DNA of 64,000 nucleotides from Bacteroidales bacterium (GCA_035531395.1 DATKTA010000032.1:146033-210032); one strand, 5' to 3'. Positions 7,569 to 48,268 are shown, counted from the stretch's first letter. The notes: generated by a model from the letters alone, not told the origin. Translations and numbers: made by a program.

Positions 7569-8951
7569 ATGATTAAGATTGACCCTAAACTTAGGGCTGC
7601 AGACCTTTCAGCTAAACTGAAAAGATTCTGGCAGTTGTCCGGAGAAAAAATATATCTGATTGACAGACAATACGATGAGTCTAAGGGATCACCGGTATTT
7701 ACCGTTAAAGGTAAATATTCAACCCGTGGCTGGACCGAATGGACTCAGGGTTTCCAATATGGTGCTGCCATTCTTCAGTTTGATGCAACAGGGGAAAAGG
7801 AATACCTTGAATCTGGCAGGAACAAAACCCTTCATAAAATGGCTCCTCATGTAAGCCATACCGGAGTCCATGATCATGGGTTCAACAATGTCAGTACTTA
7901 TGGAAATCTTCTGCGGCTGATGGTCGAAGGAAAGATCCCTTTAAATGAATGGGAAAAGAATTTCTATGAGCTTGCACTGAAAATTTCAGGAGCTGTACAG
8001 GCTTCACGCTGGACAACAATAAAGGATGGCGGATTCATTCACTCATTCAATGGGGCACATTCCTTATTTGTTGATACAATAAGGTCTTGCAGGGCACTAA
8101 CTTTAAGTCATATGCTTGGGCATGTTCTCCAGGGTGAAGGTGATGTCAAAATAAATCTTTTTGAACGGGCTATGCTCCATATGAAGGCAACTGCGAAATA
8201 TTCTGTATTCTATGGGGAGGACCGCGACAGATATGATATATGGGGCAGAACTGCCCATGAGAGTATCTTTAATGTCGCGGATGGTAATTTCAGATGTCCC
8301 GGTACGCAACAGGGATATTCCGGTTTTACCACCTGGACCCGTGGACTTGCCTGGGCAATGTGCGGTTTTGCAGAACAGCTTGAATGGTTAGAAACAATTG
8401 ACAGCAAGGAGCTTGATGCTCTTGGTGGAAAAGATGATCTTAAGGCAGTATTCCTGCGTGCGGCAAAAGCTACCTGCGATTTCTATATAGCCAATACACC
8501 TGTTGACGGAGTGCCGTACTGGGATACCGGCGCACCTGGTCTTCATCGTATGGGTGATTACCTTGATAAACCATCTGATCCTTTTAATCAGTATGAGCCT
8601 GTTGATAGCTCTGCAGCTGCTATTGCGTCACAGGGTCTTCTGAGGCTTGGCAGATACCTTGAGAACAATGTTGACCAGGCGGATGGTATGCCTTACTGGC
8701 AGGCAGGACTTAAAGTTATTGGCACTTTGTTATCAGAACCTTACATAAGCACTGATCCGGATCACCAGGGACTACTCCTTCATACTGTCTATCATCACCC
8801 GAACGGGTGGGATCATATACCTGAAGGGAGCAAAATACCTTATGGTGAATCATGTATGTGGGGTGATTATCATATCCGGGAAGCTTGTCTTTATCTTGAC
8901 AGGATCATAAACAACGGGAAATATTATACTTATTTCAATTGTGCAAAATGA
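7569..8951 (+). CDS. GH88-like (unsaturated glucuronyl hydrolase superfamily, six-hairpin), cytoplasmic
   Basis: GVHDHGFNN (the HDxGF catalytic-Asp block) and WTRGLAWAMCGF (the WxRGQAW-type block). No signal peptide. The track ORF starts at TTG 7563; I prefer ATG 7569. Confidence 0.7.
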   Translation: MIKIDPKLRAADLSAKLKRFWQLSGEKIYLIDRQYDESKGSPVFTVKGKYSTRGWTEWTQGFQYGAAILQFDATGEKEYLESGRNKTLHKMAPHVSHTGVHDHGFNNVSTYGNLLRLMVEGKIPLNEWEKNFYELALKISGAVQASRWTTIKDGGFIHSFNGAHSLFVDTIRSCRALTLSHMLGHVLQGEGDVKINLFERAMLHMKATAKYSVFYGEDRDRYDIWGRTAHESIFNVADGNFRCPGTQQGYSGFTTWTRGLAWAMCGFAEQLEWLETIDSKELDALGGKDDLKAVFLRAAKATCDFYIANTPVDGVPYWDTGAPGLHRMGDYLDKPSDPFNQYEPVDSSAAAIASQGLLRLGRYLENNVDQADGMPYWQAGLKVIGTLLSEPYISTDPDHQGLLLHTVYHHPNGWDHIPEGSKIPYGESCMWGDYHIREACLYLDRIINNGKYYTYFNCAK

Positions 8952-20447: not shown

Positions 20448-22334
20448 TCATTCCAGGACATGAATTATTACTCCTGAAGCATTGTTTTTATCGTGATATA
20501 TCCTCTGGGTTGCTTTCTGAAAGTCATTTTCACCGGCATGGTATATATCTAAGAATTTCTGAGGATTCAGGTCAACGAGCGGGAACCAGGAGCTCTGAAC
20601 CTGTATCATAATGCGGTGTCCCTTCCTGAAGCAGTGTGAAACATCAGGGAGAGGATACTTTACTTTTGTTAGAACGCCGGGGTCAAATGGCTCAGGTTTC
20701 TCATAGCTGTTCCTGAATTTTCCCCTCATCACCTCCGCTCTCACAAGCATCTGGTATCCTCCGAGAACGCACGATTCCTTACCGGAAACCGGGCCATCAT
20801 AGTTATCAGGAAAAACATCGATCAGCTTGACTATCCAGTCGGCATCAGTGCCTGTTGTAGAAACCATCAGGTCTGCAATTATCGGTCCTGCAAGAACTAT
20901 GTCATTTTCAAGGATATCTGTCTGATAGACCATCACATCAGGTCTTCTTGATGCAAACCTCTGGTCGTTGCGCATGTACTCACGTGTTCTTACAAGATGA
21001 ATTCCATCATCATATGGTACCGGCTTTGAAGGGTCACTGATATACTCATCATAACTCTCCTGCTCCTTCGGGACGCTAAAAGAGAGGAGTCCATCCTTTT
21101 GCAGGTACAGGGTTTTTTCCCTGCTTTTTGCCGGAGGCCATGTTTCATACTTCCGCCAGGTGTCCGATCCTGTTTCAAATATCATTGCCTCAGAAGGGAT
21201 GGTGGCAGGTTTATTGTTGAGGTATTTCTCGAAAAAAGGGAATTCTATATTTTCCTGGTACCATGTTGCCGTGTTTTTCTCAGGGTTGATGTCGCAGAAT
21301 ATCTCATGGGCATTACCATACCATCCACCTGTTCCTCCTGACCAACCTCCATGATACCATGGTCCCATGGTAAGATAGTTGTCATTTCCCCTGTTCTGTT
21401 TTTCCAGGGCTTCGTAGGTGTGCAGTGCACCCCAGCAATCCTCGGCATCAAAAAATCCTCCTACAACAAGTGTGGCAGGTTTGATATCATTAAGATGTGT
21501 CCGGATATTTCTGGCTTTCCAGAATTCGTCATAGGTATCATGTTTCATAAGTTCATTCCAGAATTTCATTGTATCTCCAAAATACTTCAGCTGAACATTT
21601 TTAAGAGGGCCCAGTTCGAGAAAGAATTTATAATTATCCTGTGTATAGTATTTGAATGGTTTGGGCCCTTTGTCAGGTGTAATTGGTTTTGGCCTCGGAG
21701 CGCCAAAAGAGGAATAAAACTGGAATGCATCCATTAGCATAAAGGCGCCATTATGATGGAAATCATCACCAATGAACCAATCAGTTACCGGAGCCTGCGG
21801 TGATACTGCCTTAACTGCGGGATGTGCCCCGGGAAGTGATGCTGAGGCATAAAATCCAGGATAGGAGATGCCATATAATCCGACATTCCCATTGTGGGAA
21901 TCAAGGTTGTTTAAAAGCCATTCAACAGTATCGTAGGTGTCGCTGCTTTCATCAATATCCTTTTTCCCTTTCTTATCAGGATTATGGGGCCGGATGTCAA
22001 CAAACTCTCCTTCGCTCATCCATCGGCCCCTTACATCCTGGTATACTATTATATATCCCTCTTTAACAAAAAGCATCGAGGGCACCAGGGCACGTGGATA
22101 CCTGTCTTCGCCATAAGGTGAGAGTGAGTAAGGAGTGCGGGTGATAATAATAGGATGTTTTTTCGATTTATCAATTGGTTCATAGATAGTTGTGAAAAGT
22201 TTAACACCATCACGCATCGGAATGTAGTGTTCCGATTTAATATAGTTCTTCTTTATAAATGAGGCCTTGTCTTCCTTCTGACCATAGGTGCAGAGGCTGG
22301 TGATAAGGAATATAAACAGGATTGTTTTTTTCAT
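20448..22334 (-). CDS. CocE/NonD-family serine hydrolase (S15 X-Pro dipeptidyl-peptidase / alpha-amino-acid ester hydrolase-like), secreted
   Basis: YIPMRDGVKLFTTIYEP, TRTPY, nucleophile block GISYPGFY, and a long C-terminal beta-sandwich region. Signal peptide present. Confidence 0.85.
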   Translation of the reverse strand: MKKTILFIFLITSLCTYGQKEDKASFIKKNYIKSEHYIPMRDGVKLFTTIYEPIDKSKKHPIIITRTPYSLSPYGEDRYPRALVPSMLFVKEGYIIVYQDVRGRWMSEGEFVDIRPHNPDKKGKKDIDESSDTYDTVEWLLNNLDSHNGNVGLYGISYPGFYASASLPGAHPAVKAVSPQAPVTDWFIGDDFHHNGAFMLMDAFQFYSSFGAPRPKPITPDKGPKPFKYYTQDNYKFFLELGPLKNVQLKYFGDTMKFWNELMKHDTYDEFWKARNIRTHLNDIKPATLVVGGFFDAEDCWGALHTYEALEKQNRGNDNYLTMGPWYHGGWSGGTGGWYGNAHEIFCDINPEKNTATWYQENIEFPFFEKYLNNKPATIPSEAMIFETGSDTWRKYETWPPAKSREKTLYLQKDGLLSFSVPKEQESYDEYISDPSKPVPYDDGIHLVRTREYMRNDQRFASRRPDVMVYQTDILENDIVLAGPIIADLMVSTTGTDADWIVKLIDVFPDNYDGPVSGKESCVLGGYQMLVRAEVMRGKFRNSYEKPEPFDPGVLTKVKYPLPDVSHCFRKGHRIMIQVQSSWFPLVDLNPQKFLDIYHAGENDFQKATQRIYHDKNNASGVIIHVLE

Positions 22335-25723: not shown

Positions 25724-26776
25724 ATGAATTCAAAAGAGAGAGTTCTTGCTGCTGTAAACCATAAAGTACCTGATCGTGTTCCAATTACTTTTGATGCTGC
25801 TCCGGAAGTTTATGATGCTCTTTATAAGCTCTATGGGATATCTTCCAGGGAAGACCTTTTCAATTTACTTCATTGCGATACCTGGATGATTCTTCCGGGC
25901 AACTTCGTTTATACAAAGGAGGAGGAGAATAAAACGGAGAAGACAACTGTATGGGGACACAGGACAGTTGTAAAGGCCTATCCGGGAGGAACGTATGATG
26001 AAGTTAGTTACCACCCGCTTGCCGGAAAGGATGATATCACAGATCTGAAAAATTATAGCTGGCTTTCACCGGATATTTTCGATTTCTCTCATTTCAGGAG
26101 TGAGGCTGAATTACATTCATACAGGGCAATAATTGGTGTCTATACCTGGGGCCCGTATTTTATATCACTGTTTTTAAGGGGGCTTGAAAATCTAATGCTC
26201 GATTTTGCAATAAGAAAAGCTTATGTAGGGTACATGATAAATACTCTAACTGAAATCTCATTTGCAGCTCTTTCAAGGATGCTGGAATCACATGGTGAAG
26301 GGATTGATATTGTGTATATGGCTGATGATTATTGTTCACAGGACGGACCTATGTTCAGCCCGGAAGACTTCAGGGAAATGATTTTTCCTTATCTGAGAAA
26401 GATGGTTGATATAACTCATAAGCATAATAAAAAATTTCTCCTTCATGTTTGCGGCGCTGTACGTCCTTTGTTGCCAATGATAATAGATGCAGGAGTAGAC
26501 ATGCTTGAACCTCTTCAGATAAGGGCTGAAGGCATGGAACCTTCGGGATTAAAAAGGGATTTTGGAAAGGATATCTGCTTCTACGGTGGTGTTGATCTTC
26601 AACAAATCCTCTGCAGCGGAACACCCCGGCAGGTGTCTGATGAGGTTAAGAGACTTATTGATATTCTGAATGTTAATGGCGGTTACATTCTTGGTCCGGG
26701 GCATACTTATATTCAGATAGATACTCCTCTGGAAAACATAATTTCCATGTATGAAACAGCCTTCACTCACACCTGA
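25724..26776 (+). CDS. Uroporphyrinogen-decarboxylase-fold protein of the MtaA/CmuA-like branch
   Basis: N-terminus ERVLAAVNHKVPDRVPITFDA. HxC motif LLHVCG (His 26444-26446, Cys 26450-26452). No signal peptide. Confidence 0.75.
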   Translation: MNSKERVLAAVNHKVPDRVPITFDAAPEVYDALYKLYGISSREDLFNLLHCDTWMILPGNFVYTKEEENKTEKTTVWGHRTVVKAYPGGTYDEVSYHPLAGKDDITDLKNYSWLSPDIFDFSHFRSEAELHSYRAIIGVYTWGPYFISLFLRGLENLMLDFAIRKAYVGYMINTLTEISFAALSRMLESHGEGIDIVYMADDYCSQDGPMFSPEDFREMIFPYLRKMVDITHKHNKKFLLHVCGAVRPLLPMIIDAGVDMLEPLQIRAEGMEPSGLKRDFGKDICFYGGVDLQQILCSGTPRQVSDEVKRLIDILNVNGGYILGPGHTYIQIDTPLENIISMYETAFTHT

Positions 26777-29475: not shown

Positions 29476-29530
29476 AGCCTCACCCCAAACCCCTCTCCCA
29501 GGGGAGAGGGGAATCAGAGGGGGTGAGGCT
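29476..29530. repeat. Nested-hairpin REP element (CTCACCCC...CCCCTCTCC/GGAGAGGGG type); possible terminator
   Basis: The outer stem pairs agcctcacccc (29476-29486) with ggggtgaggct (29520-29530). The inner stem pairs cccctctcc (29490-29498) with ggagagggg (29503-29511). Confidence 0.75.
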
Positions 29531-29609
29531 AAGAACATGGGGGTATCATAGGGGGCGAGACAAGATATCTGAACTAAGGAAAGAATTGACTATATCAAAA
29601 ATAGACTTT

Positions 29610-30689
29610 ATGATAACAATCGAAGCAAGTGTTTCAAAAGGTTGGCTCCACAAGAATGGAGGTTTTAACTTTGATAATCGTTATTATATGGATCCTGTTT
29701 ACCGCTGGGAACAGGATACCAGGATACATGAGTTTGTAAAGGAAAAATTCCCCGGTTATGCTATCTATAATATGGAAGCAAACCTCCTGCAGGCAAAATA
29801 TGTAAGGGATAATCACGTTCTGGTCGGGGCAATTCAACCAAATATGATCCTGGCGACCATTCTCGGTGCTGAGTTCTCTTTTTTCGAGGATAAGGATGCT
29901 GACGTTGCCGGAAAACCTCTTGAATTCATATCTGTAAAGGAGGACCTGCCCGAAATTAATTCAATTCTGGATCACCCGCTTGTAAAAGACCTTGAGAAAC
30001 AGATCCGGGAAATCACTGATACGCGGCCCGATCTTAAAGTAATACCGCCTTTTTTCTGGGATGAGTCGGGCAGGGCAACAATACATGGAATAATAACCAC
30101 CTCACTGAAACTTACAGGTGATAATATCATGATCACCATGATGGGTAATCCCGGGCTTGCGCATGCAATACATCAGTGGATTGTCGACGCATATATAGTT
30201 TTGATTAACCATTTTTCATCTCTTGCAAATCTTCCGGTCACTTCAGTGCATGTTGGAGAATGTGCAGGCACAATGGTTTCATCCGACTTGTATGATGAAT
30301 TCATTGTTCCATATATCAGTCAGCTCGGAAATAAACTCGGATTCGTTCGTCTTCATACCTGTGGCATGTCAGACCATATTATGAATTCAATAGTGAAAAT
30401 CAGGAATCTTGGTGTAATAGATACAGGTTCAGGTACTTCAATCAAGAAGATCAGAGAACTTATGGGCAGGGATTTCACAATACATGTTGCCCCACCAATG
30501 GAGTTTATGATGCAGGGCGCAAGTCAGTCGAAGATACTTGACTGGTTAAATGTAACTATTGGAGAGAATCAGGGAGGTCCTCTTCAGATAGCTTATCATA
30601 TGGAGCCTGATTATGAGGTGGAAAACTGTCTGGCGATGCATGATGAACTTGAGAGGAGTGGACTGATTTCAAACAGGCGCTTATATTGA
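29610..30689 (+). CDS. Divergent UroD/MtaA-fold-like protein (second copy in locus)
   Basis: RLHTCGMSDH (HxCG) and a preceding VGECAGTMVSSDLYDEFIVPY block parallel the 25724 protein. The track ORF starts at GTG 29523 inside the REP hairpin; I prefer ATG 29610. The fold call is tentative. Confidence 0.5.
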   Translation: MITIEASVSKGWLHKNGGFNFDNRYYMDPVYRWEQDTRIHEFVKEKFPGYAIYNMEANLLQAKYVRDNHVLVGAIQPNMILATILGAEFSFFEDKDADVAGKPLEFISVKEDLPEINSILDHPLVKDLEKQIREITDTRPDLKVIPPFFWDESGRATIHGIITTSLKLTGDNIMITMMGNPGLAHAIHQWIVDAYIVLINHFSSLANLPVTSVHVGECAGTMVSSDLYDEFIVPYISQLGNKLGFVRLHTCGMSDHIMNSIVKIRNLGVIDTGSGTSIKKIRELMGRDFTIHVAPPMEFMMQGASQSKILDWLNVTIGENQGGPLQIAYHMEPDYEVENCLAMHDELERSGLISNRRLY

Positions 30690-33240: not shown

Positions 33241-34053
33241 ATGGCAATGAAACACCATTTCATGATTATCCTGGTTGGCGCTGTTATCACAATGATTTCT
33301 TGCGACCGACCTGTGAAGGTTCTCTATCAGGAGCTCACCCCTGATGAATTCTTAACAAGACAGATAGAATGCCCTGTAGCATATCTTCCACTTGGAACAC
33401 TCGAATGGCATGGCGAACACCTTCCTCTTGGTTCAGATGGTCTTCAGTCAGCGGGATTCTTTAAGATCCTTGCGGAAGAAGCCGGAGGTATTGTTATGCC
33501 TATGCTTTTCATTGGTCCCGACGGTTATGATACAATAATCAATGGTAAGGAGTACTATGGCATGGACTGTGCCAGTCTGTTCAGCGAACAGGGGAATTAT
33601 GAAATACAGCAACTTACAGGAAGTGCATACTGGGTTCCTGATTCCACTTTCGATATAATGGTTAATGGCATTATGAAACAACTGAGCCGGGCAGGATTCA
33701 AAGTGGTTATTGCTCATGGACATGGCCCCTCTACAAACTATATCGGAGCCAACGCTGAGCTCTTTAAGGAAAGATACGGACTTATTGTTATGAATTGCTG
33801 GGGTAATGATGAGGAAGACCTATGCCTGATGTGCGATCATGCCGGTGCCAACGAAACATCCATAATGATGTATTTACACCCTGAACTGGTACATATGGAA
33901 AAGCTGCCGGCTGATACTGCAGTCTTGCCAAAAGGAATGCTTGGAAAAGACCCGCGGATTTTCGCCAGCAAGGAACACGGGAAAGCCATTATTGATTTTG
34001 AAGTCAATAAAATGAAGGCTTTAATCTCCAGGACTATATCGAACAAGGATTAA
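33241..34053 (+). CDS. Creatininase-family amidohydrolase with lipoprotein-type signal
   Basis: YLPLGTLEWHGEHLPLGSDG and VIAHGHGPS blocks. N-terminus MAMKHHFMIILVGAVITMISCD. Confidence 0.8.
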   Translation: MAMKHHFMIILVGAVITMISCDRPVKVLYQELTPDEFLTRQIECPVAYLPLGTLEWHGEHLPLGSDGLQSAGFFKILAEEAGGIVMPMLFIGPDGYDTIINGKEYYGMDCASLFSEQGNYEIQQLTGSAYWVPDSTFDIMVNGIMKQLSRAGFKVVIAHGHGPSTNYIGANAELFKERYGLIVMNCWGNDEEDLCLMCDHAGANETSIMMYLHPELVHMEKLPADTAVLPKGMLGKDPRIFASKEHGKAIIDFEVNKMKALISRTISNKD

Positions 34054-38212: not shown

Positions 38213-39358
38213 TCAGGATACTCCAAAACGATCGAGCCTGTAAAACTTAATAGCATTATCCCAGTAGATCTTTTTCAGGGCTTTCTCATCAATCCCGATA
38301 CCGTCAATCTTCCACTTTCCCTGGATGGGAGTAGGGTGATCGAACTGTCTGTCGGTTGTCTGAAAGTATCTCCAGTGGATCTTATAAAATTCACGGTGTT
38401 CATCAAGTGTGAAATTTTTACATGGACCGGCCCCCTGAACATCGCATTCTGACCAGTAGGCAAGATCTGTTCCGAACATGATGCGATCCTGATATCTGGT
38501 AAAGAAATCATGACCCTCGGAAGATGTATGTCTGCCCAGTTCCCCGATACGGGCCGCAGTATCAATCCACAGGTTTGGCATTTCATCCAGCCATTTGCTT
38601 ACTTCCTTTATATTTTCAGAATAACCGGCAACATGTACAGCAACAAACTGTATCCCCTTAAATTTTCTGTATACATTATTAACTTGTTCGAACAGTGCCT
38701 CCAGAGGTGGATATTTACTACGGTCGGCAAACGACCATTCAGGATGAAGCTCAAGCTCTTCCCATCTCTCATTGGATGGTTCCCATGGTTTAAAAAATGC
38801 TACCGGGTCGCCTGTGTGAAAAGCAACAGGTATTCCAAGCTTTCCAGCTCTTTCCCAGATGGGAAATAAGCGTGGATCATCAATCGCTATCAGCTTCCCC
38901 TCCTGATCTCTTGCAGTCAGGCCAAGCTGCTTCAGGTTTTTCAGCGCAATTGCCCCGGCATTAACAGCTTTCTCAAGCATGTCAGGAGCCTTGCTGAAGA
39001 ATTCAGGATCACTCTCTGCAAGGTCCCAGTCGTAAGTGTAGTGCAAGCCTATCCTGTTTCTGTGCTGACTGAAGGCTTCGGCGAGTTCATAAAACGCCTT
39101 GTCACCAGTATACAGATCTTCTCCTTTCCCAGACAAGGAGGCAATTACCACACCATACCTTATCAGATTATCATCCATTACCTGCAAAGCTTTTTTTACC
39201 TTTCCGGGAGTGATATGTATGTGCGCATCTATTACACGTCCACCTACGGGTTTATCGGAGACCTGAGATCCTGAACCACTGCAACCCGGCATTCCTGCAA
39301 TCGAAATTGCTGCTGCACCAAGTCCCGCTTTTTCTATGAATTCTCTTCTTTTTATCAT
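38213..39358 (-). CDS. Tat-exported metal-dependent amidohydrolase (Amidohydro_2-like)
   Basis: Leader MIKRREFIEKAGLGAAAISIAG. HxH metal site VIDAHIHI. C-terminal MFGTDLAYW. Confidence 0.75.
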   Translation of the reverse strand: MIKRREFIEKAGLGAAAISIAGMPGCSGSGSQVSDKPVGGRVIDAHIHITPGKVKKALQVMDDNLIRYGVVIASLSGKGEDLYTGDKAFYELAEAFSQHRNRIGLHYTYDWDLAESDPEFFSKAPDMLEKAVNAGAIALKNLKQLGLTARDQEGKLIAIDDPRLFPIWERAGKLGIPVAFHTGDPVAFFKPWEPSNERWEELELHPEWSFADRSKYPPLEALFEQVNNVYRKFKGIQFVAVHVAGYSENIKEVSKWLDEMPNLWIDTAARIGELGRHTSSEGHDFFTRYQDRIMFGTDLAYWSECDVQGAGPCKNFTLDEHREFYKIHWRYFQTTDRQFDHPTPIQGKWKIDGIGIDEKALKKIYWDNAIKFYRLDRFGVS

Positions 39359-39496: not shown

Positions 39497-40879
39497 TTAA
39501 TTGTCTGAATTTCTGAAATTATCTATCTCCCCATATGCTTCCGATCTTCTGTCCTTCCTCCATACTCCATCCCAAACACCAAGTCCGGCATTGCCGATCC
39601 AGTACCAGGGAGGATTGAAATTAAGGTCGATTGTTGCAGTGAGGAGTGTCCCCTGCTTTCCGCTTTCATTGAGAATCTCTCCCTCCGGATTTACAATCAG
39701 GCTGTTTCCGTCATATTTGCTGGTCACAAAATAGATACCGTTGTCAATTGCACGACTGCGGGTAGTGACTTTCCATGCATCAGTTGTTCCATGCAAATCA
39801 CCCCAGATCGGACAGAAGAGGATCTCTGCTCCATTTATAGCCAGTATTCTTGAGATTTCCGGGAAGGCAATGTCCCAGCAAATAAGTATTCCTATTTTCC
39901 CGAAATCAGTTGTAAATACAGGAAAGGCAGTTCCGGGAACAGCCCCGAGTTCTGTCTCTGAGTCAGGTAGCTGTACTTTCTCATATACTCCCTGTATCTT
40001 ACCCTTCCGGTCATATAGTACTGCCACATTTTTCAAAGTATCACCGCTCCAGCTGTATAATCCTGATACTATATACATACCATATTCCCTGGCCTTTTTT
40101 GACATCATTACCGAGGCCGTGCCACCAAGAGTATTTGCTTCCACCTTTGTCATTCCAAGACCGGTATCGCATGTGGCCCATCCTTCAGGAAGACAAACAA
40201 TGTCACAACCTGCTTTGCCGGCTTTATCGATCATTTCACTCATAAGCACAACGTTTTTCTCCACTGTTGGACCTGGAGGACGGAAATACATTGTACCGAC
40301 TACTATATTTCGTGGTGGCACATCTTCACATGGTTCCATTGAGATATCATCCCACCAGATAATGCCAGTTCCCCAGCGGAATACCAGCGAAATTTCAGCT
40401 GTGACAGCTCCTTCAACTGCTTTAACCTTGTCTGAAGCCATTAACCATCCGTCCCTGTCATCAGTTATATGGTAGATGTAGTTATAACCAACCTGCTCTT
40501 CTCCCTTAAACCATTTGATCCTTATAAGTACGCTTTTATCTATTGAAGCAATATTTTGTGCCCTGAATCTTGCATTGAAAAGATATGTCTGGCCGCCTTT
40601 TATCTGAACTGCCTGTACAACTTTGCCATGGACATTCGGATTTGTACTTGCCATTCTGAGGCTCTGTATGCCACCAAATTTAACTTTGCTGTCAACTGAA
40701 ATCGCAGGCATCATTGTCTCAATAGGTCCTGTTATGGTCCAGCCTTCAGGTGTTCCTGGCGAGGCCTCAAATCCCGGGTTCATTATAAGGTTTGTCTCTG
40801 ATGCCATGACCAGCGGTATTGATATAAGCATCAGAACCGGGTAACAAAATGTTTTTACTTTTATTTTCATTACTTTCAT
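39497..40879 (-). CDS. Secreted carbon-nitrogen hydrolase (nitrilase superfamily) with N-terminal CBM4_9-like jelly-roll domain
   Basis: Signal peptide. NLIMNPGFEASPGTPEGWTI (CBM-like). Glu-Lys-Cys triad context: CLPEGW, YEKVQL, ILICWDIAFPE. Confidence 0.8.
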   Translation of the reverse strand: MKVMKIKVKTFCYPVLMLISIPLVMASETNLIMNPGFEASPGTPEGWTITGPIETMMPAISVDSKVKFGGIQSLRMASTNPNVHGKVVQAVQIKGGQTYLFNARFRAQNIASIDKSVLIRIKWFKGEEQVGYNYIYHITDDRDGWLMASDKVKAVEGAVTAEISLVFRWGTGIIWWDDISMEPCEDVPPRNIVVGTMYFRPPGPTVEKNVVLMSEMIDKAGKAGCDIVCLPEGWATCDTGLGMTKVEANTLGGTASVMMSKKAREYGMYIVSGLYSWSGDTLKNVAVLYDRKGKIQGVYEKVQLPDSETELGAVPGTAFPVFTTDFGKIGILICWDIAFPEISRILAINGAEILFCPIWGDLHGTTDAWKVTTRSRAIDNGIYFVTSKYDGNSLIVNPEGEILNESGKQGTLLTATIDLNFNPPWYWIGNAGLGVWDGVWRKDRRSEAYGEIDNFRNSDN

Positions 40880-40906: not shown

Positions 40907-41833
40907 TTATGCCGATACCCATTCATACGTACATCCCTGTTTGAAATGAATGGTCTCAATATCGGGATATTTTTCTTTAATTATCTGGTTCAGCGACCTC
41001 ATTCCCATTTCCTCACTGGTCCCATGATTAATTACAATCAATGGATGACCGGTGTCTTCCGCATATACAGTCTGGATATGGGTTCGGATAATATCATCAA
41101 TTGCAATAAATACATCAGGTTTGAGATCGGCATAGTCCATAGGATCGCATATCCAGCCTGTTCCAATACCTACACTTGAAACCTCTCTTGCAGGATCGCC
41201 GTAAAAGGCTACGCCAGGCTGACCCAGTTCCTTTAGTCTGCCGGCTAAGCTCCTGGCAAACGAAGAGGCAGGCTGCTTCTGAAACTTATAGACGTTGTAA
41301 TATATTCGTGAGGCAATTATGTCGCTGTTACTGAAGCCCAAGAACTGGCCGAATGCAAAAGGAATACCTTTATCCTGAAGTGCATCAAGTGTATCATGGT
41401 TCCTGATTATCACCAGACCATTATCGTTGATCCATTTCTTTTTCTTTTCAATCTGTGAAATATACTCCTCTCTGGTGTAATCAGGCGATCTCTGGAGAAA
41501 TCCGGGAACTTCATCAAGATCCCTGTGGGTGTAAAAAGTGGGTTCATGAGTGATAAGTACATTCACACCTGCTTCAACTGCCTTCCTGCAAGTATACTGG
41601 TTCGACATCCAGCAGGTACCGATCTTTTTAATAACAGTATCAGGATTTCCTATAATGAAACGGTCAACAGTGTCAGGCTTAAGCTTGACATGAGAGGTTA
41701 GGAATTGCTGAAGTTGAGCAGCTGTTAATCCGGACTCAGCAGCAACTGAATGAGATATGGCTCCTGTAATTCCTGAGGAAGAGAGAAATGTTCCTGACAG
41801 GGCAGCTAGTTTAATGAAATCCTTGCGAATCAT
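40907..41833 (-). CDS. NIF3/YbgI-like dinuclear-metal protein with an export (Tat-like RK) leader
   Basis: MIRKDFIKLAALSGTFLSSSGITGA leader. VLITHEPTFY and VINHGTSEEMG blocks resemble the NIF3 (DUF34) metal-binding segments. Confidence 0.55.
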   Translation of the reverse strand: MIRKDFIKLAALSGTFLSSSGITGAISHSVAAESGLTAAQLQQFLTSHVKLKPDTVDRFIIGNPDTVIKKIGTCWMSNQYTCRKAVEAGVNVLITHEPTFYTHRDLDEVPGFLQRSPDYTREEYISQIEKKKKWINDNGLVIIRNHDTLDALQDKGIPFAFGQFLGFSNSDIIASRIYYNVYKFQKQPASSFARSLAGRLKELGQPGVAFYGDPAREVSSVGIGTGWICDPMDYADLKPDVFIAIDDIIRTHIQTVYAEDTGHPLIVINHGTSEEMGMRSLNQIIKEKYPDIETIHFKQGCTYEWVSA

Positions 41834-41941: not shown

Positions 41942-43375
41942 ATGAAAAGAAGAAAATTTTTTCAGGTATCATCAGCAGGTGTTGCAGGCCTTGCTTTAGG
42001 CTCATCGTGCAAATCAACGGGTGATAAAAAAGTTGTTGATCAGGTAGCTCAGAGCCCTTCTGAAGTGCCTGACTACAGGAAAACTGTTAAAACGGAGTTT
42101 ACTTCAGTAAAGCCCAAACCAGCCAGTGATAAGGTGATACTGGCACTTATTGGAGCCGGAGGCTGGGGTACAAACCTGATACTCGAAGCAGCAAACGCAG
42201 GGGAGAACATCCTTATTAAATATGTTTGCGATGTGGATGATACCAGGGGGGGGCGTGCCATAGCAGAACTCGAAAAGATACAGGGATTCAAGCCCATTGC
42301 GATAAGAGATATGAGGAAAGTTTATGACGATAAAGAGGTTGATGGAGTGTTTGTTGAGACACCAGAGCACTGGCATGCACTTGCCACTATATGGGGATGC
42401 CAGGCAGGTAAGGATGTCTATGTGGAAAAGACTGTTTCTCATTCAATATTTGAAGGACAACAGATGATTAAAGCGGCCATGAAGTACGAGCGGATTGTAC
42501 AGTGCGGGATGCAAAACCGGAGTGCGGATTATGCTATTACTGCAAGGGATTATATAAAGAGTGGTGAACTCGGAGATATTGTTTCGGTTCATGTCCGTGA
42601 ATTGCTCGACGGACCTGTCCCTCTTAATGAAAAGGAAAACACTGCTCCTCCTGATACCATAGACTGGAACATGTGGCTGGGCCCTGCACCTGAAGTACCA
42701 TATAATGTCTCCAGGAACAAATCATGGGGGTATTACTGGGATTATTCGGGTGGTTATGTAACATCAGGTGGATCAATTCACCAGCTTGATATGGCAAGAA
42801 TGGTACTTGGTTTTCCCGATCTCCCGAAGTCAGCCTATTGTTCCGGTGGCAGATATGCTTTCAATGACAATCGGGATGTGCCTGATTATCAAATGACAAC
42901 TTTTGATTACGGAAATTGGGTCATGACACTTGAAACTGGTGAATGTACACCCTATATGCAAAAATCAGGTCTCGATGTTCGTTTCGGAACCATATATCCC
43001 AAATGGATGGAGAATGCAACACGGGTAGATATTCTTGGAACAAAAAGAATAATGTACCTGGGACGCATGGGAGGGGGCTGGCAGGTATTTGACAAAGATG
43101 AAAAGCTGGTTGCCCAGGATAAAGGGATCTTCCCGCTTAAGGCTCATATACTGAACTATATCGATTGCATCAGGACCAGGAAGCAACCAAATGGCAGCAT
43201 CGTGGAAGGACATAAAAGCGCAGTGCATATTCATCTGGCAAATCTCTCCTACAGGGCAGGAAACAGGCAGCTCTTGTTCTCTCCTGAATATGAAGCCATC
43301 ATGAATGACAAAAAAGCAGCTGAGCTGGACCATCTTGATTACAGGTCAGGATTTGAGATTTCAAAGGAGGTATAG
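41942..43375 (+). CDS. Tat-exported Gfo/Idh/MocA-family oxidoreductase
   Basis: Leader MKRRKFFQVSSAGVAGLALGSSC. Rossmann block LALIGAGGWG. EKP-variant YVEKTVSH. Confidence 0.85.
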   Translation: MKRRKFFQVSSAGVAGLALGSSCKSTGDKKVVDQVAQSPSEVPDYRKTVKTEFTSVKPKPASDKVILALIGAGGWGTNLILEAANAGENILIKYVCDVDDTRGGRAIAELEKIQGFKPIAIRDMRKVYDDKEVDGVFVETPEHWHALATIWGCQAGKDVYVEKTVSHSIFEGQQMIKAAMKYERIVQCGMQNRSADYAITARDYIKSGELGDIVSVHVRELLDGPVPLNEKENTAPPDTIDWNMWLGPAPEVPYNVSRNKSWGYYWDYSGGYVTSGGSIHQLDMARMVLGFPDLPKSAYCSGGRYAFNDNRDVPDYQMTTFDYGNWVMTLETGECTPYMQKSGLDVRFGTIYPKWMENATRVDILGTKRIMYLGRMGGGWQVFDKDEKLVAQDKGIFPLKAHILNYIDCIRTRKQPNGSIVEGHKSAVHIHLANLSYRAGNRQLLFSPEYEAIMNDKKAAELDHLDYRSGFEISKEV

Positions 43376-43507
43376 TATAATAAAAACTCAGACCGGATAA
43401 TAGATGACTTTCGGTAATCAATATTACAACAAAGATTTAAGTTTGAGACGATACTAGACCAAGTAAAAGTATCTTAATTTTGTTTTATTAACCCATCCCC
43501 TTCCCTT

Positions 43508-43533
43508 CCCTTCCTTTATTCTTAAAGGAAGGG
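43508..43533. other. 10-bp stem hairpin in a long convergent spacer
   Basis: cccttccttt (43508-43517), loop attctt, then aaaggaaggg (43524-43533). Confidence 0.6.
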
Positions 43534-43631
43534 GCATATCCGTCAACCTACGGAATCTGAAAAAGGTTTTTCAGGGATGATAAATAAAGGCAAACGGATT
43601 TTAATATCGAATTTCAGTTCATTTATAATAA

Positions 43632-43658
43632 TTTCCCCTCCTTCAAAAGGAGGGGAAA
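43632..43658. terminator. 12-bp stem hairpin (TTTCCCCTCCTT/AAGGAGGGGAAA); candidate terminator or REP
   Basis: tttcccctcctt (43632-43643), loop caa, then aaggaggggaaa (43647-43658). The flanks are T-rich on both strands. Confidence 0.55.
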
Positions 43659-43801: not shown

Positions 43802-46800
43802 TCAATTCATGCTGTTTTCTTTAAAATAAGTAATATATGATTTCAGGTTTTCAAAATATCCTTCAAGATTAAGAAGTTGTTCGTCATAGATTAAGAAGCT
43901 CATATCGGGTCTTCGGAATGCAAAATGCCTGGCTCTGTCCTGCTGCCAGAAGAACTCTTTATTTTCTGTCGATAATCCTTTAGGCAAACGGGTCTGCTCG
44001 TATACAGATACCAGGTCATTAAAAACAGTTGATCTCCTGGTCAGAATGTTCTCGACAATATTTTGTGCCTCGATAAGGCTGTTAAGAGATACATTAGAAT
44101 CGAGAAAACGATTTATATGCGCCTTTTTTATTATTTTTTCCAGGTTGGAGAGATCAATATAGACCTGGCATGTGTGTTTCACAAGTTCTGCTGATGTACG
44201 GAAAATCTCAAAATCATAGTTGTGCCTGATGTCTGTATTTTTATTCTCAGAAATAATTTGCAGAGCCCTGTCCATCTTTCCCAGGATCTGCTCGGACTGT
44301 ATTACTTTTTCCTTGTACCGTGTATTCCAGTATGGATCATATTCCAGAGCATCACCTCTTGGCAGGTCAGGCAGGTGTGTTTGTCCTATCTCACCGTAAT
44401 GCCAGACATTCCTTTCCATGGTTCCTGCAAAATAGTAAGCTCCTTCGTTAAGAATTTTAAAGAGTTCATCCATATCTGCAGCAGAGCTTCCATAACAGTT
44501 TGCAAAAAAAGATTCCATAAATTCATTTCGGCCAGGATTACTTCCATTCCAGGAACAGGCGGCAGCATTGACAAAATGCATCATCCACATCTGGTTATGC
44601 AGGTCATCATCATCCCATGAAGTGCAGATCATCCCATTGAATACTCCTGTTCTTGCTGCTGATGATAGAAAATTATATGATTTTTCAAGGCTTCCGGGTC
44701 TTATGTTTCCCCTTTCTCCTTTTTCAAAAATATATGGTACCATCAGCGGAACGACACCTGGATTCGGATCATATGCAAATACCTTATAGCCCTGGGAGTT
44801 AGCTTTTTTGATATATGTCAGGTCAGGTGTTTCATAATTATAGCTTTCAGCAAGAACCAGTTCTGGTGCCGGTTTAATTCCAATTGCAGGCGATCTGCTT
44901 GCTTCCCATCCCATTGGGGTTTCCCAGGCCATAGTCTTTCTGCCTTTGGGACTTAGATATTCGGCAGCCTTATTAATAAAAGTAAGGTAGAGACCACTTC
45001 TGCCAATTTCAGCTGCTTTTGCTTTACATTGGTCACAGACACCTAGTTCGTAAGTCTCATCAGATCCAATATGCAGATATTCAGATCCTGGTGTAGCCTC
45101 AATTGCATCCTTCCACAGATCGAACAAGAGTGTATAGCTTCCCTCTTTAAGAGGACAGAATTCCCAGTTCGAGGATTCAATTTCCCTCAGATTTTTAAAT
45201 TGGGGCCATTTCAGTATAAAGCTTACGTGACCAAGCCCCTGGACAAGTGGAACGATCTGGATATGATACTGCCTGGCAAAACGGGTAAATTCCTGCATCT
45301 CTGCCATTGTAAAAGCTCCCGGAGCACCTATCTCAAGATGGCTCGGGTAGGCAAATTTGTCTTCCCATTCCCATACAAGCATATTTACCTTATATCTGGC
45401 AAGATCCTTAATGAATGATTTTACATATGAAGCCTTATCCTGGTGATGTTTTGTATCATAATGTATTGCACGGTTTTCAATATCCGGCCAGTCTTTTATC
45501 GAGATGCCCGGTACCTTGTAACCCTTTGCATTTTGTTTTATGAGCTGCAGGAGAGTCTGAGTCCCATAAAACAAACCTTCTTCATCCTTCCCAAGAATAA
45601 TCACTTCCTTTTCTCCGGAAGTTAGCTGGTATCCCTGGGCATGTAAAGTTTTTCCTGTACGGTCACGCCTGAGGATAATTGAAGGATATTCTCCACTGGA
45701 ATTTATCCGGGCATTTATGCCAAATTCATTCTTAAGATCTTTTATAAGCTCCTCAGCTGCAAACCGGTCAGATGCAGAATGGTTCTTATCCAATGTAATT
45801 TTCACCTCATTACTGAAGTTGAAATCTTCACCTTTTAATGTTACTTCCTTTGGAAAGGGTATAACATTAAGTCCAAGTGCTTTCAGAACATTTTTTGTCA
45901 GTACAGTGTCGGGGCCCGGTCCGTAATCAACAGCCTTTACCGCCTCTATCTGACTTTCCCTGTTACCTGTTGTCAGATGAATCTCTTTATATTTTTCAAG
46001 GAGAGGAGGATTCTGATCCGTTAGCATCCCATATGTATCAGGACGGCGAGATTTATTATGGATTGCCGTCAGATTATTTGTGCCATTAATTGTCTCCCAC
46101 CACTTGCTGTCAGCAATTCTCTCTTTGGAAAAATCAATCTCAGCCATAATAACTGTATTCTTCTTTCCGGGGGCCTCAGCTGCCACATTGCCGTTAAAAT
46201 CAATTATGCCGTTACCTTCGGAACCAAGTACAACCGGTGCAACATAGACTGAATTATCTTTGGCCCTGGTAACAATCATATTTGCTGTACTGAGACTCTC
46301 CCCGGGTATATTATCTCTTGCCATCGTAGGATTGAAAATAATATCAGCTCCTTTAAGAGCATAGATTGTTGATATCTCAGGATAAGATAACTCCCAGCAG
46401 GTAGCAATTGCAATTGTACCGAAATCAGTCTTGTATACTTCATATTCATCTCCTGTTGAGACCAGCCAGGTTTCCATAACCGGAAGTACTGTTTTGCGAT
46501 GTTTCCCGATTATATTACCCTGACGGTCGAAGATAACGGCTGTATTGAAGACCTTGCCCTCTGAAGCTTCATACATTGGCGCAATTATGTACATATTTGA
46601 TTTTCTGGCAATTTCAGCCACTCTGTCTGTTAAGGGTCCCGGTACCGGTTCTGCAAGTGAGCTAAATAGGATTTCTCCTGTCTCAGGATCTTTTGTATCT
46701 ATGTATAAACCATAGGACCCAATATGTTGAATATCTTCCGGTCCGCATACCAGGTCAGCTCCCATCTTACCGGCTTCCTCAAAAAGAGCAAGCAAATTGT

Positions 46801-46987
46801 CCAGATGGGTTTTCATCTGTGGACGTACCTTTGAATAATCATAAGAATTCATGAAAGGATCCTGATTCGGATGTCCTTCAGCCTGTATTATCGCAATATT
46901 TGCTTTTCTGGTCTGCTGGCTATTTACATTGAAAAATGTAAGCAGGATCAGGATGCCAAAAACGGATATATTTTTCATAGAACTCAT
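43802..46987 (-). CDS. Secreted fusion protein: N-terminal carbon-nitrogen hydrolase domain plus GH20-like (beta-hexosaminidase-fold) domain plus C-terminal helical region
   Basis: 1061 aa with a signal peptide. Nitrilase-superfamily triad context: CGPED (E84), GKHRK (K165), IATCWELSYPE (C197, 46397-46399). The GH20b-like segment runs from about residue 370. IKDWPDIENRAIHYDTKHH and HIGSDETYELG are present (Asp-Glu pair at 45056-45061). Confidence 0.75.
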   Translation of the reverse strand: MSSMKNISVFGILILLTFFNVNSQQTRKANIAIIQAEGHPNQDPFMNSYDYSKVRPQMKTHLDNLLALFEEAGKMGADLVCGPEDIQHIGSYGLYIDTKDPETGEILFSSLAEPVPGPLTDRVAEIARKSNMYIIAPMYEASEGKVFNTAVIFDRQGNIIGKHRKTVLPVMETWLVSTGDEYEVYKTDFGTIAIATCWELSYPEISTIYALKGADIIFNPTMARDNIPGESLSTANMIVTRAKDNSVYVAPVVLGSEGNGIIDFNGNVAAEAPGKKNTVIMAEIDFSKERIADSKWWETINGTNNLTAIHNKSRRPDTYGMLTDQNPPLLEKYKEIHLTTGNRESQIEAVKAVDYGPGPDTVLTKNVLKALGLNVIPFPKEVTLKGEDFNFSNEVKITLDKNHSASDRFAAEELIKDLKNEFGINARINSSGEYPSIILRRDRTGKTLHAQGYQLTSGEKEVIILGKDEEGLFYGTQTLLQLIKQNAKGYKVPGISIKDWPDIENRAIHYDTKHHQDKASYVKSFIKDLARYKVNMLVWEWEDKFAYPSHLEIGAPGAFTMAEMQEFTRFARQYHIQIVPLVQGLGHVSFILKWPQFKNLREIESSNWEFCPLKEGSYTLLFDLWKDAIEATPGSEYLHIGSDETYELGVCDQCKAKAAEIGRSGLYLTFINKAAEYLSPKGRKTMAWETPMGWEASRSPAIGIKPAPELVLAESYNYETPDLTYIKKANSQGYKVFAYDPNPGVVPLMVPYIFEKGERGNIRPGSLEKSYNFLSSAARTGVFNGMICTSWDDDDLHNQMWMMHFVNAAACSWNGSNPGRNEFMESFFANCYGSSAADMDELFKILNEGAYYFAGTMERNVWHYGEIGQTHLPDLPRGDALEYDPYWNTRYKEKVIQSEQILGKMDRALQIISENKNTDIRHNYDFEIFRTSAELVKHTCQVYIDLSNLEKIIKKAHINRFLDSNVSLNSLIEAQNIVENILTRRSTVFNDLVSVYEQTRLPKGLSTENKEFFWQQDRARHFAFRRPDMSFLIYDEQLLNLEGYFENLKSYITYFKENSMN

Positions 46988-47170: not shown

Positions 47171-48268
47171 ATGATATTATTGAACAGTGATATTGGTAAT
47201 TATGTCATCAGCAATGGCAGGCGGTTTTCCTATTTCGGAGGGAACAACTATCTGGGACTTGCCAGCCATCCTGAGGTAAAGGAGGCATCAATAAGGGCTA
47301 TAGAAAAGTATGGTGTAAATTTTTCAGCTTCGCGCCGTACTTCAGGAACTGCCGATATACATCTTGAGCTGGAAAAGAGACTATCCGGATTCAAAGGCAG
47401 TGAGAATACTGTTGTTTTTTCATCAGGGTACCAGGGTAATGGAATTCTGCTTGAAGTCTTAAAAGAAAAATATAGCACTTTATTTATTGAACAGTATGCT
47501 CATGCAAGTATCAGATCTGCTGTTCATTCAGAAAAGAAGGAAGCCATATTTTACAATCACTGCGATGCTGAGCATCTTGAAAGCTTATTGTTTCAGCATA
47601 AAAATATTTCAGCGCTGATAATTACTGACGGGATCTTCCCGCTTACAGGCGAGATTGCACCACTCGATAAGATCTATAATCTGGCAAAAAAGTATAATGC
47701 TGTACTGGTAGTAGATGATGCCCACGCCACAGGCGTAATTGGTAAATCAGGGAAAGGTACCCCGGAGTACTTCAATCTGCCGGAGGATGATAATCTTTTT
47801 CAGTCGGAAACTATGAGTAAGGCTCTTGGGAGCTATGGAGGATTTATTTCAGGGACCAGGTCTTTTACGGAAAACATCCGGGAAAGATCCGCTACATACC
47901 AGGCATCCACCTCACTGCCTCCTTCAGTTGTCGCAGCAGGAATAGCTGCACTCAGGATAATTGATGAAAACAGGGATCTGCAAGCGGGATTGTTAAAAAA
48001 AGCAGATAACATGAGGGCTATGATCAGAAATCAGGGATTCAAAACCACCGATAGCATAACTCCAATCATCCCGCTTATGTTTTCCGATGAACTTACAGCA
48101 AGAAGACTCTCCTCTTATCTTGAGGAAAATGGGTTTATTGTTCCCTATATGAATTACCCTTCTGAGAAGCAACAGTATTTGATCAGAATTGCTGTTTCAG
48201 TACTTCATACTGAAGAGCAGATATCTGAGCTGTCAGGTGTTCTGGATAAGTGGAAAAGCAGAACCTAG
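47171..48268 (+). CDS. Alpha-oxoamine synthase family PLP enzyme (BioF/Kbl/Spt-like)
   Basis: FGGNNYLGLASHPEV, VVDDAHATGVIGKSGKG and SETMSKALGSYGG (PLP lysine). No other bio genes are adjacent. Confidence 0.8.
   Translation: MILLNSDIGNYVISNGRRFSYFGGNNYLGLASHPEVKEASIRAIEKYGVNFSASRRTSGTADIHLELEKRLSGFKGSENTVVFSSGYQGNGILLEVLKEKYSTLFIEQYAHASIRSAVHSEKKEAIFYNHCDAEHLESLLFQHKNISALIITDGIFPLTGEIAPLDKIYNLAKKYNAVLVVDDAHATGVIGKSGKGTPEYFNLPEDDNLFQSETMSKALGSYGGFISGTRSFTENIRERSATYQASTSLPPSVVAAGIAALRIIDENRDLQAGLLKKADNMRAMIRNQGFKTTDSITPIIPLMFSDELTARRLSSYLEENGFIVPYMNYPSEKQQYLIRIAVSVLHTEEQISELSGVLDKWKSRT

Follow-up and report, generated by a model that had tools for sequence, protein, structure and literature searches.

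What function could be served by joining, in a single exported polypeptide, a C-N hydrolase of the nitrilase superfamily to a glycoside hydrolase of family 20 (GH20)? The question is raised by an uninterrupted open reading frame (ORF) at 43802..46987 on the minus strand of a 64,000-nucleotide stretch of DNA from a Bacteroidales bacterium (GCA_035531395.1, DATKTA010000032.1:146033-210032), referred to below, at its full length, as the window. The ORF encodes 1061 amino acids, laid out from the N- to the C-terminus as a signal peptide, a CN_hydrolase domain, a GH20b domain, a GH20 barrel and a helical tail of about 260 residues (Table 1). Our analysis indicates that this is very likely a real fusion of two enzymes that serve one glycan-catabolic pathway, and we tentatively propose that the amidase half carries out the de-N-acylation of a hexosamine.

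A sequence-only reading of this DNA had described the 1061-residue ORF with its Sec signal, an N-terminal nitrilase-type domain with an intact Glu-Lys-Cys triad, and a GH20b plus GH20 region, and in these respects it was accurate, down to the motifs and codon positions that it quoted for C197 and for D643-E644. The hydrophobic N-terminus, MSSMKNISVFGILILLTFFNVNSQQ, resembles a signal peptide and is free of Cys, indicating that the protein is not a lipoprotein, and a Pfam search found no type IX secretion system (T9SS) sorting domain at the C-terminus. Lipoprotein and T9SS localisation were therefore ruled out, and the fusion protein is predicted to be exported, with the periplasm as its most likely location. 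The database copy of the protein (P0001) begins at Met4 and has 1058 amino acids; Met4 is the probable true start.

Assignment of the N-terminal half to the nitrilase superfamily was supported by profile and residue comparisons. Pfam CN_hydrolase (PF00795) matched residues 58-287 with an E-value of 5.9e-35 and 121.3 bits against a cut-off of 23.2, covering profile positions 14-249 of 256. Alignment with mouse Nit2 (2w1v) placed its conserved Glu, Lys and Cys at E84, K165 and C197, and these three residues, together with E172, were invariant both in an alignment of 26 fusion orthologues (alignment A1) and in one of 23 N-domain sequences (alignment A2). Foldseek returned a probability of 1.0 against D-carbamoylase, Nit2, N-carbamoylputrescine amidase (CPA) and formamidase for an AlphaFold model of the domain whose mean predicted local distance difference test score (pLDDT) was 63 and in which residues 196-258 scored below 50. 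The model used for the GH20 half reached a mean pLDDT of 70, and the catalytic loops were below 50 in both of these modest models. The alignments were shallow (23-26 sequences of about 70% identity).

Within the superfamily, the domain did not fall into any branch with a known function. PDB profile matches were spread over NIT4, β-ureidopropionase, Nit2, PH0642 and CPA, with E-values of 1e-17 to 1e-21, and pantetheinase structures matched weakly (about E 1e-8). No NCBIfam equivalog cut-off was reached, the best score being that of aguB (67 bits against 410), followed by archaeal nitrilase (54 against 500), deaminated-glutathione amidase (48 against 355) and lnt (30 against 133). Since these scores lie far under the cut-offs and the PDB matches are even across branches, membership of a known nitrilase branch was rejected. 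When compared with the known carbohydrate de-N-acetylase families (CE4, CE9, CE11, CE14, CE18 and the OngB type), the domain matched CN_hydrolase only; if it does deacylate sugars, it falls outside all of these families. Clustering of a library at 50% identity reduced the orthologous amidase group to one sequence, which scored 604 bits, whereas 309 bits was the score of the next relative. Many of the remoter relatives are proteins of 415-470 amino acids with an extra N-terminal module, and others are often multi-domain, being tandem amidases or joined to M14 or M28 peptidases, fn3 or a PL6-like domain. By sequence criteria, the amidase domain is a member of the nitrilase superfamily that lies outside every characterised branch, presumably using, by analogy, the thioester mechanism of the small-molecule nitrilase-type enzymes. 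Existing database names for these proteins vary: 'family 20 glycosylhydrolase', 'predicted amidohydrolase' and 'N-carbamoylputrescine amidase' are all in use.

The sequence-only reading would have fallen had the middle domain not been GH20-like, and here too the evidence was clear. Glyco_hydro_20b (PF02838) matched residues 374-500 (E 3e-26, 93 bits against a cut-off of 26) and Glyco_hydro_20 (PF00728) matched residues 506-736 with a modest score (E 3e-13, 50 bits against 22), with a weaker overlapping match to DUF4838. Foldseek related the model to GH20 enzymes including FjGH20 (6yhh), BT0459 (6q63) and the Vibrio harveyi GH20 with E-values of about 1e-22. Alignments of GH84 O-GlcNAcases to the model span about 700 columns, compared with about 500-540 for most GH20 matches, but are loose, at a root-mean-square deviation of about 11 Å. 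D643-E644 of the HIGSDE motif, the catalytic pair of polarising Asp and acid/base Glu, are invariant in alignments A1 and A4, and the conserved R506, as well as W688, W791 and D792, is invariant in A1. These features suggest that the GH20 half is an exo-β-N-acetylhexosaminidase. The best PDB sequence match, HEX-2 of Trichuris suis (8qk1, E 2e-17), aligned in its RxxHxD motif and with HIGADE opposite HIGSDE, and this HexD-like enzyme prefers β-linked N-acetylgalactosamine (GalNAc) substrates.

The genomic setting of GH20 orthologues pointed in the same direction. In a survey of 83 loci anchored on the GH20 gene, AgaS and KbaZ each occurred in 17 loci, KbaY and PfkB were also linked, and one locus (L068) carried AgaS, PfkB, an aldolase and GH20 on a single strand. 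AgaS, KbaZ, KbaY and PfkB make up the tagatose-bisphosphate route for galactosamine. From the preference of HEX-2 and the linkage to AgaS, KbaZ and KbaY, the GH20 half is probably directed at GalNAc. A cultured relative, Proteiniphilum saccharofermentans (LT605205.1; locus L065, entry 7560-8537 (-)), has a GH20 orthologue of 61% identity that adjoins Amidohydro_2, AgaS, KbaZ, PfkB and aldolase genes; no nitrilase-type amidase is found there, and about 1.5 kb away there is a gene for a secreted PIG-L (CE14-like) deacetylase. The idea that secreted PIG-L proteins generally stand in for an absent amidase was dropped, as PIG-L was found in only one of the 83 GH20 loci.

Beyond the domains named by the sequence-only reading, which stand, lies a C-terminal region of about 800-1061 that it did not describe. 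DSSP analysis of the AlphaFold model showed this region to be helical from about residue 800, with long helices at 892-916, 923-959, 964-999 and 1041-1058. The last 272 residues match no Pfam family, and the tail is shared with standalone GH20 orthologues of about 725 amino acids.

Having established what the two halves are, we asked how widely they are joined. Full-length fusion orthologues of 1041-1096 amino acids, carrying the same three Pfam domains at 54-80% identity, were retrieved from many independent assemblies and fall into about 46 protein clusters. When the amidase alignment was used to scan GTDB, each species being represented by a single genome, 56 loci were obtained, all from metagenome-assembled genomes (MAGs) and mostly from Bacteroidales, Prolixibacteraceae, Draconibacterium, Mariniphaga, Maribellus and 'Rikenellaceae', with a few from Balneolaceae, Glassbacteria, Gemmatimonadales and 'Pirellulales'. 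Fifty of these species-level loci had a callable amidase gene. The two genes were fused in 10, GH20 lay immediately downstream of the amidase in 9 and elsewhere within 10 kb in 10, no GH20 was present in the fetched DNA in 19, and 2 were cut by a contig end. Broken genes in three related loci (L060, L061 and L017) appear to be local assembly errors.

Comparison of split and fused forms revealed how the junction was formed. Residues 1-366, used as query, retrieved hundreds of standalone amidases of about 360 amino acids (67-77% identity), and GH20b, GH20 and tail together also exist as standalone proteins of about 725 amino acids with up to 74% identity; several of these amidases and GH20s are encoded on one contig. 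The amidase C-terminal extension belongs to the standalone amidase gene in relatives, and it is of low confidence and partly helical in the AlphaFold models. In loci such as L004 and L006, co-oriented adjacent genes encode the amidase, ending in ...AV(R/K)EVDYGPNxxxKK, and then the GH20, which opens with its own signal peptide and continues ...LGLNVIPYP. In the fused form, ...VDYGP runs into ...LGLNVIPYP through a variable linker of 10-15 residues, the intergenic spacer having disappeared along with the inner signal peptide. A signal-like N-terminus was seen in all 35 standalone amidases and all 11 fusions compared, and in 17 of the 18 standalone GH20s. Together, these comparisons indicate that two separately exported neighbours merged, with loss of a stop codon and of the GH20 signal peptide. 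They also bear on the statement in the sequence-only reading that nitrilase-superfamily enzymes are normally cytoplasmic, since the whole orthologous group is exported; the extracellular vanin/biotinidase type likewise qualifies that statement.

Both catalytic halves of the fusion are under purifying selection, with only the joint free to vary: mean pairwise identity was 70% in the amidase, 65% in its C-terminal extension, 47% in GH20b, 74% in the GH20 barrel and 64% in the helical tail, but only 20% in the linker. In a neighbour-joining tree of amidase domains, fusions were scattered among split forms in several branches. The fusion may have arisen more than once, but the tree is star-like and lacks support values, so the events cannot be counted from it.

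The amidase gene was found in a recurrent locus whose composition speaks to the pathway that the two halves serve. The usual order is SusC, SusD, (a BNR/Sortilin-like gene), a divergent pair encoding an enolase-type enzyme that resembles L-Ala-D/L-Glu epimerase and a BioF/Kbl-like enzyme, then a DeoR regulator, an EamA permease and the amidase. Downstream, the amidase is followed either by GH20, or by a SASA-type O-acetylesterase, a TonB-dependent receptor set, AgaS, KbaZ, a KbaY-like aldolase, GH20 and a GH88-like gene, and convergent genes for Gfo/Idh/MocA oxidoreductases with a twin-arginine translocation (TAT) signal and for DLH/AXE1 esterases come next. To quantify these associations, the ORFs of all loci were clustered and cluster representatives annotated, and frequencies were taken from the 26 complete loci, those in which the amidase gene had 8 kb or more of sequence to its left and to its right, the flanks inspected being about 10 kb on each side. 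The BioF/Kbl-like gene was the most constant neighbour (20 of 26), followed by GH20 (16), Gfo/Idh/MocA (15), EamA (14), enolase (13), DeoR (12), Amidohydro_2 (11), GH88-like (10), SusD (10), KbaZ (9), SASA (9), AgaS (7) and KbaY (5); SusC/SusD lay within 10 kb of the amidase in 10. Variant loci carry a PL8 lyase, CE15-like (glucuronoyl-esterase-like) esterases, GH42-like or DUF4832 proteins, a DUF4838 protein or GH123, and some have a weak PL14-like protein.

A second enzyme can take the position of GH20. In about 17 loci (L007/L008, 10001-13298, among them), the amidase is followed by a SASA (sialate-O-acetylesterase-like) protein of about 735 amino acids, indicating that the amidase pairs alternately with a de-O-acetylase. 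These loci next carry a FecR-TonB receptor, DUF4249, a 582-residue protein of no assigned family and AgaS/KbaZ. The proposal of the sequence-only reading that C-N bond cleavage is coupled to removal of an N-acylhexosamine stands in part: a functional link gains strength from the halves being, in most relatives, separate co-oriented genes of one conserved glycan locus and often adjacent, but the amidase is followed as often by a SASA-like gene as by GH20. A further partner is a GH2 homologous to the exo-β-D-glucosaminidase CsxA (2vzs, E 4e-145), which is encoded immediately upstream of the fusion in L001 (7184-9886 +) and L024, and about 5 kb upstream of a split pair in L040 (2364-5057), where DUF4832-like and BioF/Kbl-like genes intervene. 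CsxA works on de-N-acetylated hexosamine ends. In L001, the GH2 gene stands beside an N-acylglucosamine 2-epimerase-like gene.

We propose that the GH20 half would use substrate-assisted catalysis to remove a terminal β-linked N-acetylhexosamine (HexNAc), probably GalNAc, from oligosaccharides that have been imported. GH20 catalysis depends on the 2-acetamido group of the sugar being cleaved off, so a deacetylase cannot precede it on the same residue and would have to act afterwards or on another residue. The most likely target of C197 would then be the N-acetyl (N-acyl) carbonyl of the hexosamine that GH20 has released or uncovered, and the resulting acetyl-thioester would be hydrolysed by water to give the free amino sugar and acetate. 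The amino sugar would enter a galactosamine (GalN)-type pathway of AgaS, KbaZ, KbaY and PfkB, without the recurrent presence of AgaA/NagA in the loci, and in some genomes the de-N-acetylated product would suit the adjacent CsxA-type exo-β-glucosaminidase.

Several observations favour this reading, which we hold tentatively and at less than even probability. According to published work, agaS without agaA marks pathways of the GalN type, as opposed to the GalNAc type (PMC5583593). An Amidohydro_1/NagA-like (AgaA) cluster did not recur in three or more loci within the flanks inspected, and this pattern, together with the upstream CsxA homologue, favours de-N-acetylation. The finding of GH123, a β-N-acetylgalactosaminidase, in other amidase loci was counted on the same side: the partners of the amidase are HexNAc-ases (GH20, GH123) or de-O-acetylases, which argues for de-N-acetylation. 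Finally, the Foldseek neighbours of the amidase model include 5g3p, a formamidase acetylated at its active site, indicating that acetyl-enzyme chemistry exists in the nitrilase superfamily. On a similarly cautious footing, at odds somewhat below even, the N-terminal domain and its orthologues of about 360 amino acids could represent a new class of carbohydrate-active amidase, exported, metal-independent and with a Cys nucleophile, that acts on amides of amino sugars or uronic acids.

A number of points weigh against hexosamine de-N-acylation. We know of no nitrilase-superfamily enzyme that deacylates a sugar, and the nearest solved relatives (NIT4, β-ureidopropionase, Nit2, CPA and D-carbamoylase) free ammonia from small substrates that are primary amides, carbamoyl compounds or nitriles, not secondary amides. 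The window lacks AgaS, KbaZ and KbaY, each of which occurs in only 5-9 of the 26 complete loci, no GalN kinase was found among the annotated genes, and AgaA/NagA may lie elsewhere in genomes of which about 10 kb of flank was inspected. The CsxA-like GH2 was found in only two species, PIG-L took the place of the amidase in just one GH20 locus, and the AlphaFold models are too poor for inspection of the pocket or the domain arrangement. De-N-acetylation also leaves the constant BioF/Kbl-like enzyme and the epimerase-like enolase unexplained.

These last two enzymes would find a role if the amidase instead unmasked carboxyl groups, the main and a serious alternative, although we consider it less likely. 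It would hydrolyse a uronamide (N-acetylgalactosaminuronamide, GalNAcAN, or galacturonamide, GalAN), releasing ammonia, or a uronoyl-amino-acid amide, releasing an amino acid, and thereby open an acidic glycan to GH20, the GH88-like enzyme and lyases; EamA would import the amino compound, to be processed by the BioF/Kbl-like pyridoxal phosphate (PLP) enzyme and the epimerase-like enolase. The nearest characterised relatives of the amidase are indeed hydrolases of primary amides and carbamoyl groups (Nit2 ω-amidase, CPA, β-ureidopropionase and D-carbamoylase), and remoter ones are fused to M14 and M28 peptidases and a PL6-like domain. The GH88-like, PL8, CE15/glucuronoyl-esterase-like and weak PL14-like proteins in the loci point to uronic-acid chemistry on an acidic, carboxyl-decorated glycan. 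The commonest partners are of amino-acid type and are accompanied by EamA, a permease of the carboxylate, amino-acid or amine type, and BioF/Kbl-like and enolase enzymes fit an amino-acid-like product better. However, amidated carboxyls on the target glycan are an assumption, and the tight pairing with GH20, GH123 and the CsxA-like GH2 is left unexplained. Moreover, enolase and BioF/Kbl-like genes accompany GH20 where the fetched DNA has no amidase gene (L066 and L113, with enolase alone in L118 and L122), suggesting that they may belong to the locus and not to the amidase step.

Less probable again is that neighbouring genes simply merged without catalytic coupling, the amidase acting on an unrelated periplasmic amide in nitrogen scavenging or detoxification and being merely co-regulated. 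In Gemmatimonadales, Glassbacteria and 'Pirellulales' MAGs the orthologous amidase does stand alone among unrelated neighbours, and the loci with SASA in place of GH20, as well as the 19 of 50 without GH20, are in keeping with such an independence. Against this, fusions occur in several branches of the neighbour-joining tree with both active sites intact each time, every amidase copy is exported, and within Bacteroidota the amidase gene almost always lies amid genes for exported carbohydrate-active enzymes.

More doubtful still is a route through an oxidised amino sugar, in which Gfo/Idh/MocA and Amidohydro_2, the latter as a lactonase, would turn HexNAc into a 2-acetamido-aldonic acid for the amidase to deacetylate; EamA would bring in the amino-aldonate, an α-amino acid, for the enolase-type and PLP enzymes to act on. 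TAT-exported Gfo/Idh/MocA and Amidohydro_2 proteins do recur as neighbours, the partners act on substrates of α-amino-acid type, and N-carbamoyl-D-amino-acid hydrolases are among the structural neighbours of the amidase. There is also a precedent in OngB, a deacetylase of N-acetylglucosaminic acid (GlcNAc1A) descended from D-aminoacylases (PMC12017989). Yet the route involves many inferred steps, the role of Amidohydro_2, which had no match in PDB or NCBIfam, is assumed, and the Gfo/Idh/MocA protein weakens C1 oxidation by being closest to glycoside 3-dehydrogenases and DgpA rather than to C1-oxidising enzymes. For the window protein, the best PDB matches were the dehydrogenases 8tdf and 8tdh and DgpA, and NCBIfam BT_2158 glycoside 3-dehydrogenase scored 120 bits, below its cut-off. 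The objection that the sequence-only reading had raised to itself, that a frameshift or assembly error joined two genes, failed, and such an artefact or a dead domain is rejected with near certainty given dozens of full-length orthologues, invariant residues and an in-frame linker.

The window carries a reduced version of the conserved locus, comprising the BioF/Kbl-like, Gfo/Idh/MocA, second amidase and Amidohydro_2 genes (Table 1); no SusD-like gene was found among the ORFs of at least 150-200 amino acids scanned between 1828 and 51783. The BioF/Kbl-like enzyme scored 304 bits against NCBIfam bioF, below the cut-off, stayed under every NCBIfam equivalog cut-off, and lacks about 30 N-terminal residues relative to the solved AONS, KBL and SPT enzymes; none of the readings considered here accounts well for its constancy beside the amidase. 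The terminator-like hairpin lies within the 426-bp gap between the convergent fusion and Gfo/Idh/MocA genes, close to a CT/GA-rich palindrome around 43490-43540. The second amidase resembles many of the remoter relatives in having an N-terminal module, here of about 170 residues and β-rich (NLIMNPGFE...GWT); it looks like a carbohydrate-binding module, an assignment that was rejected as no Pfam match was better than E 0.08. The trio of NIF3-like, second amidase and Amidohydro_2 genes recurs in L009 and L060, and Amidohydro_2 adjoins GH20 in Proteiniphilum too.

Further off, the window encodes GH109, GH106, an SGNH esterase, BNR/Sortilin and URO-D-like proteins. The URO-D-like (methyltransferase-type) genes at 25724-26776 (+) and 29523-30689 (+) flank an MFS transporter and GH109. 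In related loci, URO-D-like genes lie directly 3' of the fusion gene (L002, L037, L044, L046 and L057), and the gene that comes after the fusion in L001 (13210-14706) encodes a RACo-type corrinoid reductive activator. The URO-D-like and RACo-type genes hint that the same pathway may include a corrinoid-dependent step that demethylates methylated sugars.

Table 1. Features of the fusion gene and its surroundings, in positions of the window
Feature	Coordinates	Strand	Basis
Sec-type signal peptide, residues 1-24	46916..46987	-	hydrophobic N-terminus, no lipobox Cys
CN_hydrolase amidase domain, residues ~27-290	46118..46909	-	Pfam, Foldseek, invariant catalytic residues
Codon of E84	46736-46738	-	
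Codon of K165	46493-46495	-	
Codon of E172	46472-46474	-	
Codon of C197	46397-46399	-	
Amidase C-terminal extension, residues 291-358, ends ...AVKAVDYGP	45914..46117	-	A2 alignment, standalone C-termini
Fusion linker, residues 359-372	45872..45913	-	split versus fused junction comparison
GH20b (GH20 domain 2), N-terminal α/β, residues 373-500	45488..45871	-	Pfam, Foldseek
GH20 (β/α)8 catalytic domain, residues ~501-800	44588..45487	-	Pfam, 8qk1 match, Foldseek
Codons of D643-E644 (HIGSDE)	45056-45061	-	
C-terminal all-helical domain, residues ~801-1061	43805..44587	-	DSSP of AlphaFold model
BioF/Kbl-family PLP enzyme (α-oxoamine synthase-like, cytoplasmic), divergent	47171..48268	+	Pfam; PDB AONS/KBL E 3e-66
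Hairpin, 12-bp stem, GC-rich, terminator-like	43632..43658	.	TTTCCCCTCCTT...AAGGAGGGGAAA
TAT-signal Gfo/Idh/MocA oxidoreductase, 477 aa, convergent	41942..43375	+	Pfam; orthologues in 15/26 complete loci
TAT-signal NIF3-like protein, flanks second amidase	40907..41833	-	Pfam
Second CN_hydrolase (exported paralogue), 460 aa, 29% identity with the amidase of the fusion	39497..40879	-	Pfam, alignment
TAT-signal Amidohydro_2, downstream of second amidase	38213..39358	-	Pfam; 11/26 complete loci
DUF5107 + TPR protein, 1008 aa	35186..38212	+	
Creatininase-family amidohydrolase	33241..34053	+	
S15 X-Pro dipeptidyl-peptidase-like protein	20448..22334	-	

The sequence-only reading was aware of no characterised example of such a fusion, and we found none in the literature either: in sources that left most subscription journals outside their coverage, nothing tied the nitrilase superfamily to polysaccharide utilization loci, SusC/D, GH20, periplasmic glycoside hydrolases, de-N-acetylases or sugar deacylation. 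To our knowledge, no member of the superfamily acts on glycans. If sugar amides are the substrates, the amidase would bring to polysaccharide degradation a new kind of catalysis and probably a further enzyme family, in effect a new CAZy-type esterase/deacylase family, and it would provide the GalN-type (agaS without agaA) pathways of these loci with their deacetylation step. If its target is an unrelated small amide, the gene fusion is an ordinary one. In either case, an annotation rule is gained for these variously named proteins, along with a testable target that has two separable domains, clear catalytic residues and an acyl-enzyme that could be trapped by mass spectrometry.

The fusion can be compared with several known systems. 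Nit2 ω-amidase (2w1v), CPA (5h8i), D-carbamoylase (6le2), β-ureidopropionase (2vhh) and formamidase (5g3o) share the Glu-Lys-(Glu)-Cys set, aligned residue by residue, and probably the fold with the amidase half. Whereas these small-molecule enzymes are cytoplasmic, single-domain proteins that act on small metabolites, the amidase of the fusion is exported, has a C-terminal extension of about 70 residues, is encoded in glycan loci, and is fused or adjacent to carbohydrate-active enzymes. Similarly, HEX-2 (8QK1), FjGH20 (6yhh) and BT0459 (6q63) share GH20b plus barrel, the H-x-G-x-D-E motif and the conserved Arg with the fusion, which differs from the solved GH20s in its identity of about 17-20% (structural alignments), its extra helical domain of about 260 residues and the amidase fused to it. 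The vanin/pantetheinase and biotinidase enzymes, extracellular animal members of the nitrilase superfamily, have secondary amides as their substrates and an additional domain at the C-terminus, but they are eukaryotic, act on pantetheine or biocytin, have no glycosidase partner and are remoter from the fusion's amidase than are Nit2, CPA and β-ureidopropionase.

The closest functional parallels to the proposed activity are PgaB and PelA, bifunctional periplasmic deacetylase-glycosidases that combine a CE4-type metal-dependent domain with a GH153- or GH166-type domain in the biosynthesis and export of poly-N-acetylglucosamine (PNAG) and Pel, respectively. Like the fusion proposed here, they unite, in one exported chain, a hexosamine de-N-acetylase and a glycoside hydrolase for a polymer rich in HexNAc; unlike it, they are metal-dependent and biosynthetic, not catabolic, and their sequences are unrelated. 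In OngB, a fold of the amino-acid-deacylase type was recruited to deacetylate an amino-sugar derivative in an oxidative chitin pathway, and the paper on it describes all known carbohydrate de-N-acetylases as metal-dependent (PMC12017989). A de-N-acetylase with a Cys nucleophile would therefore be mechanistically new. What is novel here is where a familiar fold occurs, in the cell and in the genome, and its fusion to a glycosidase of a known family; the chemistry that we suggest for it is a proposal.

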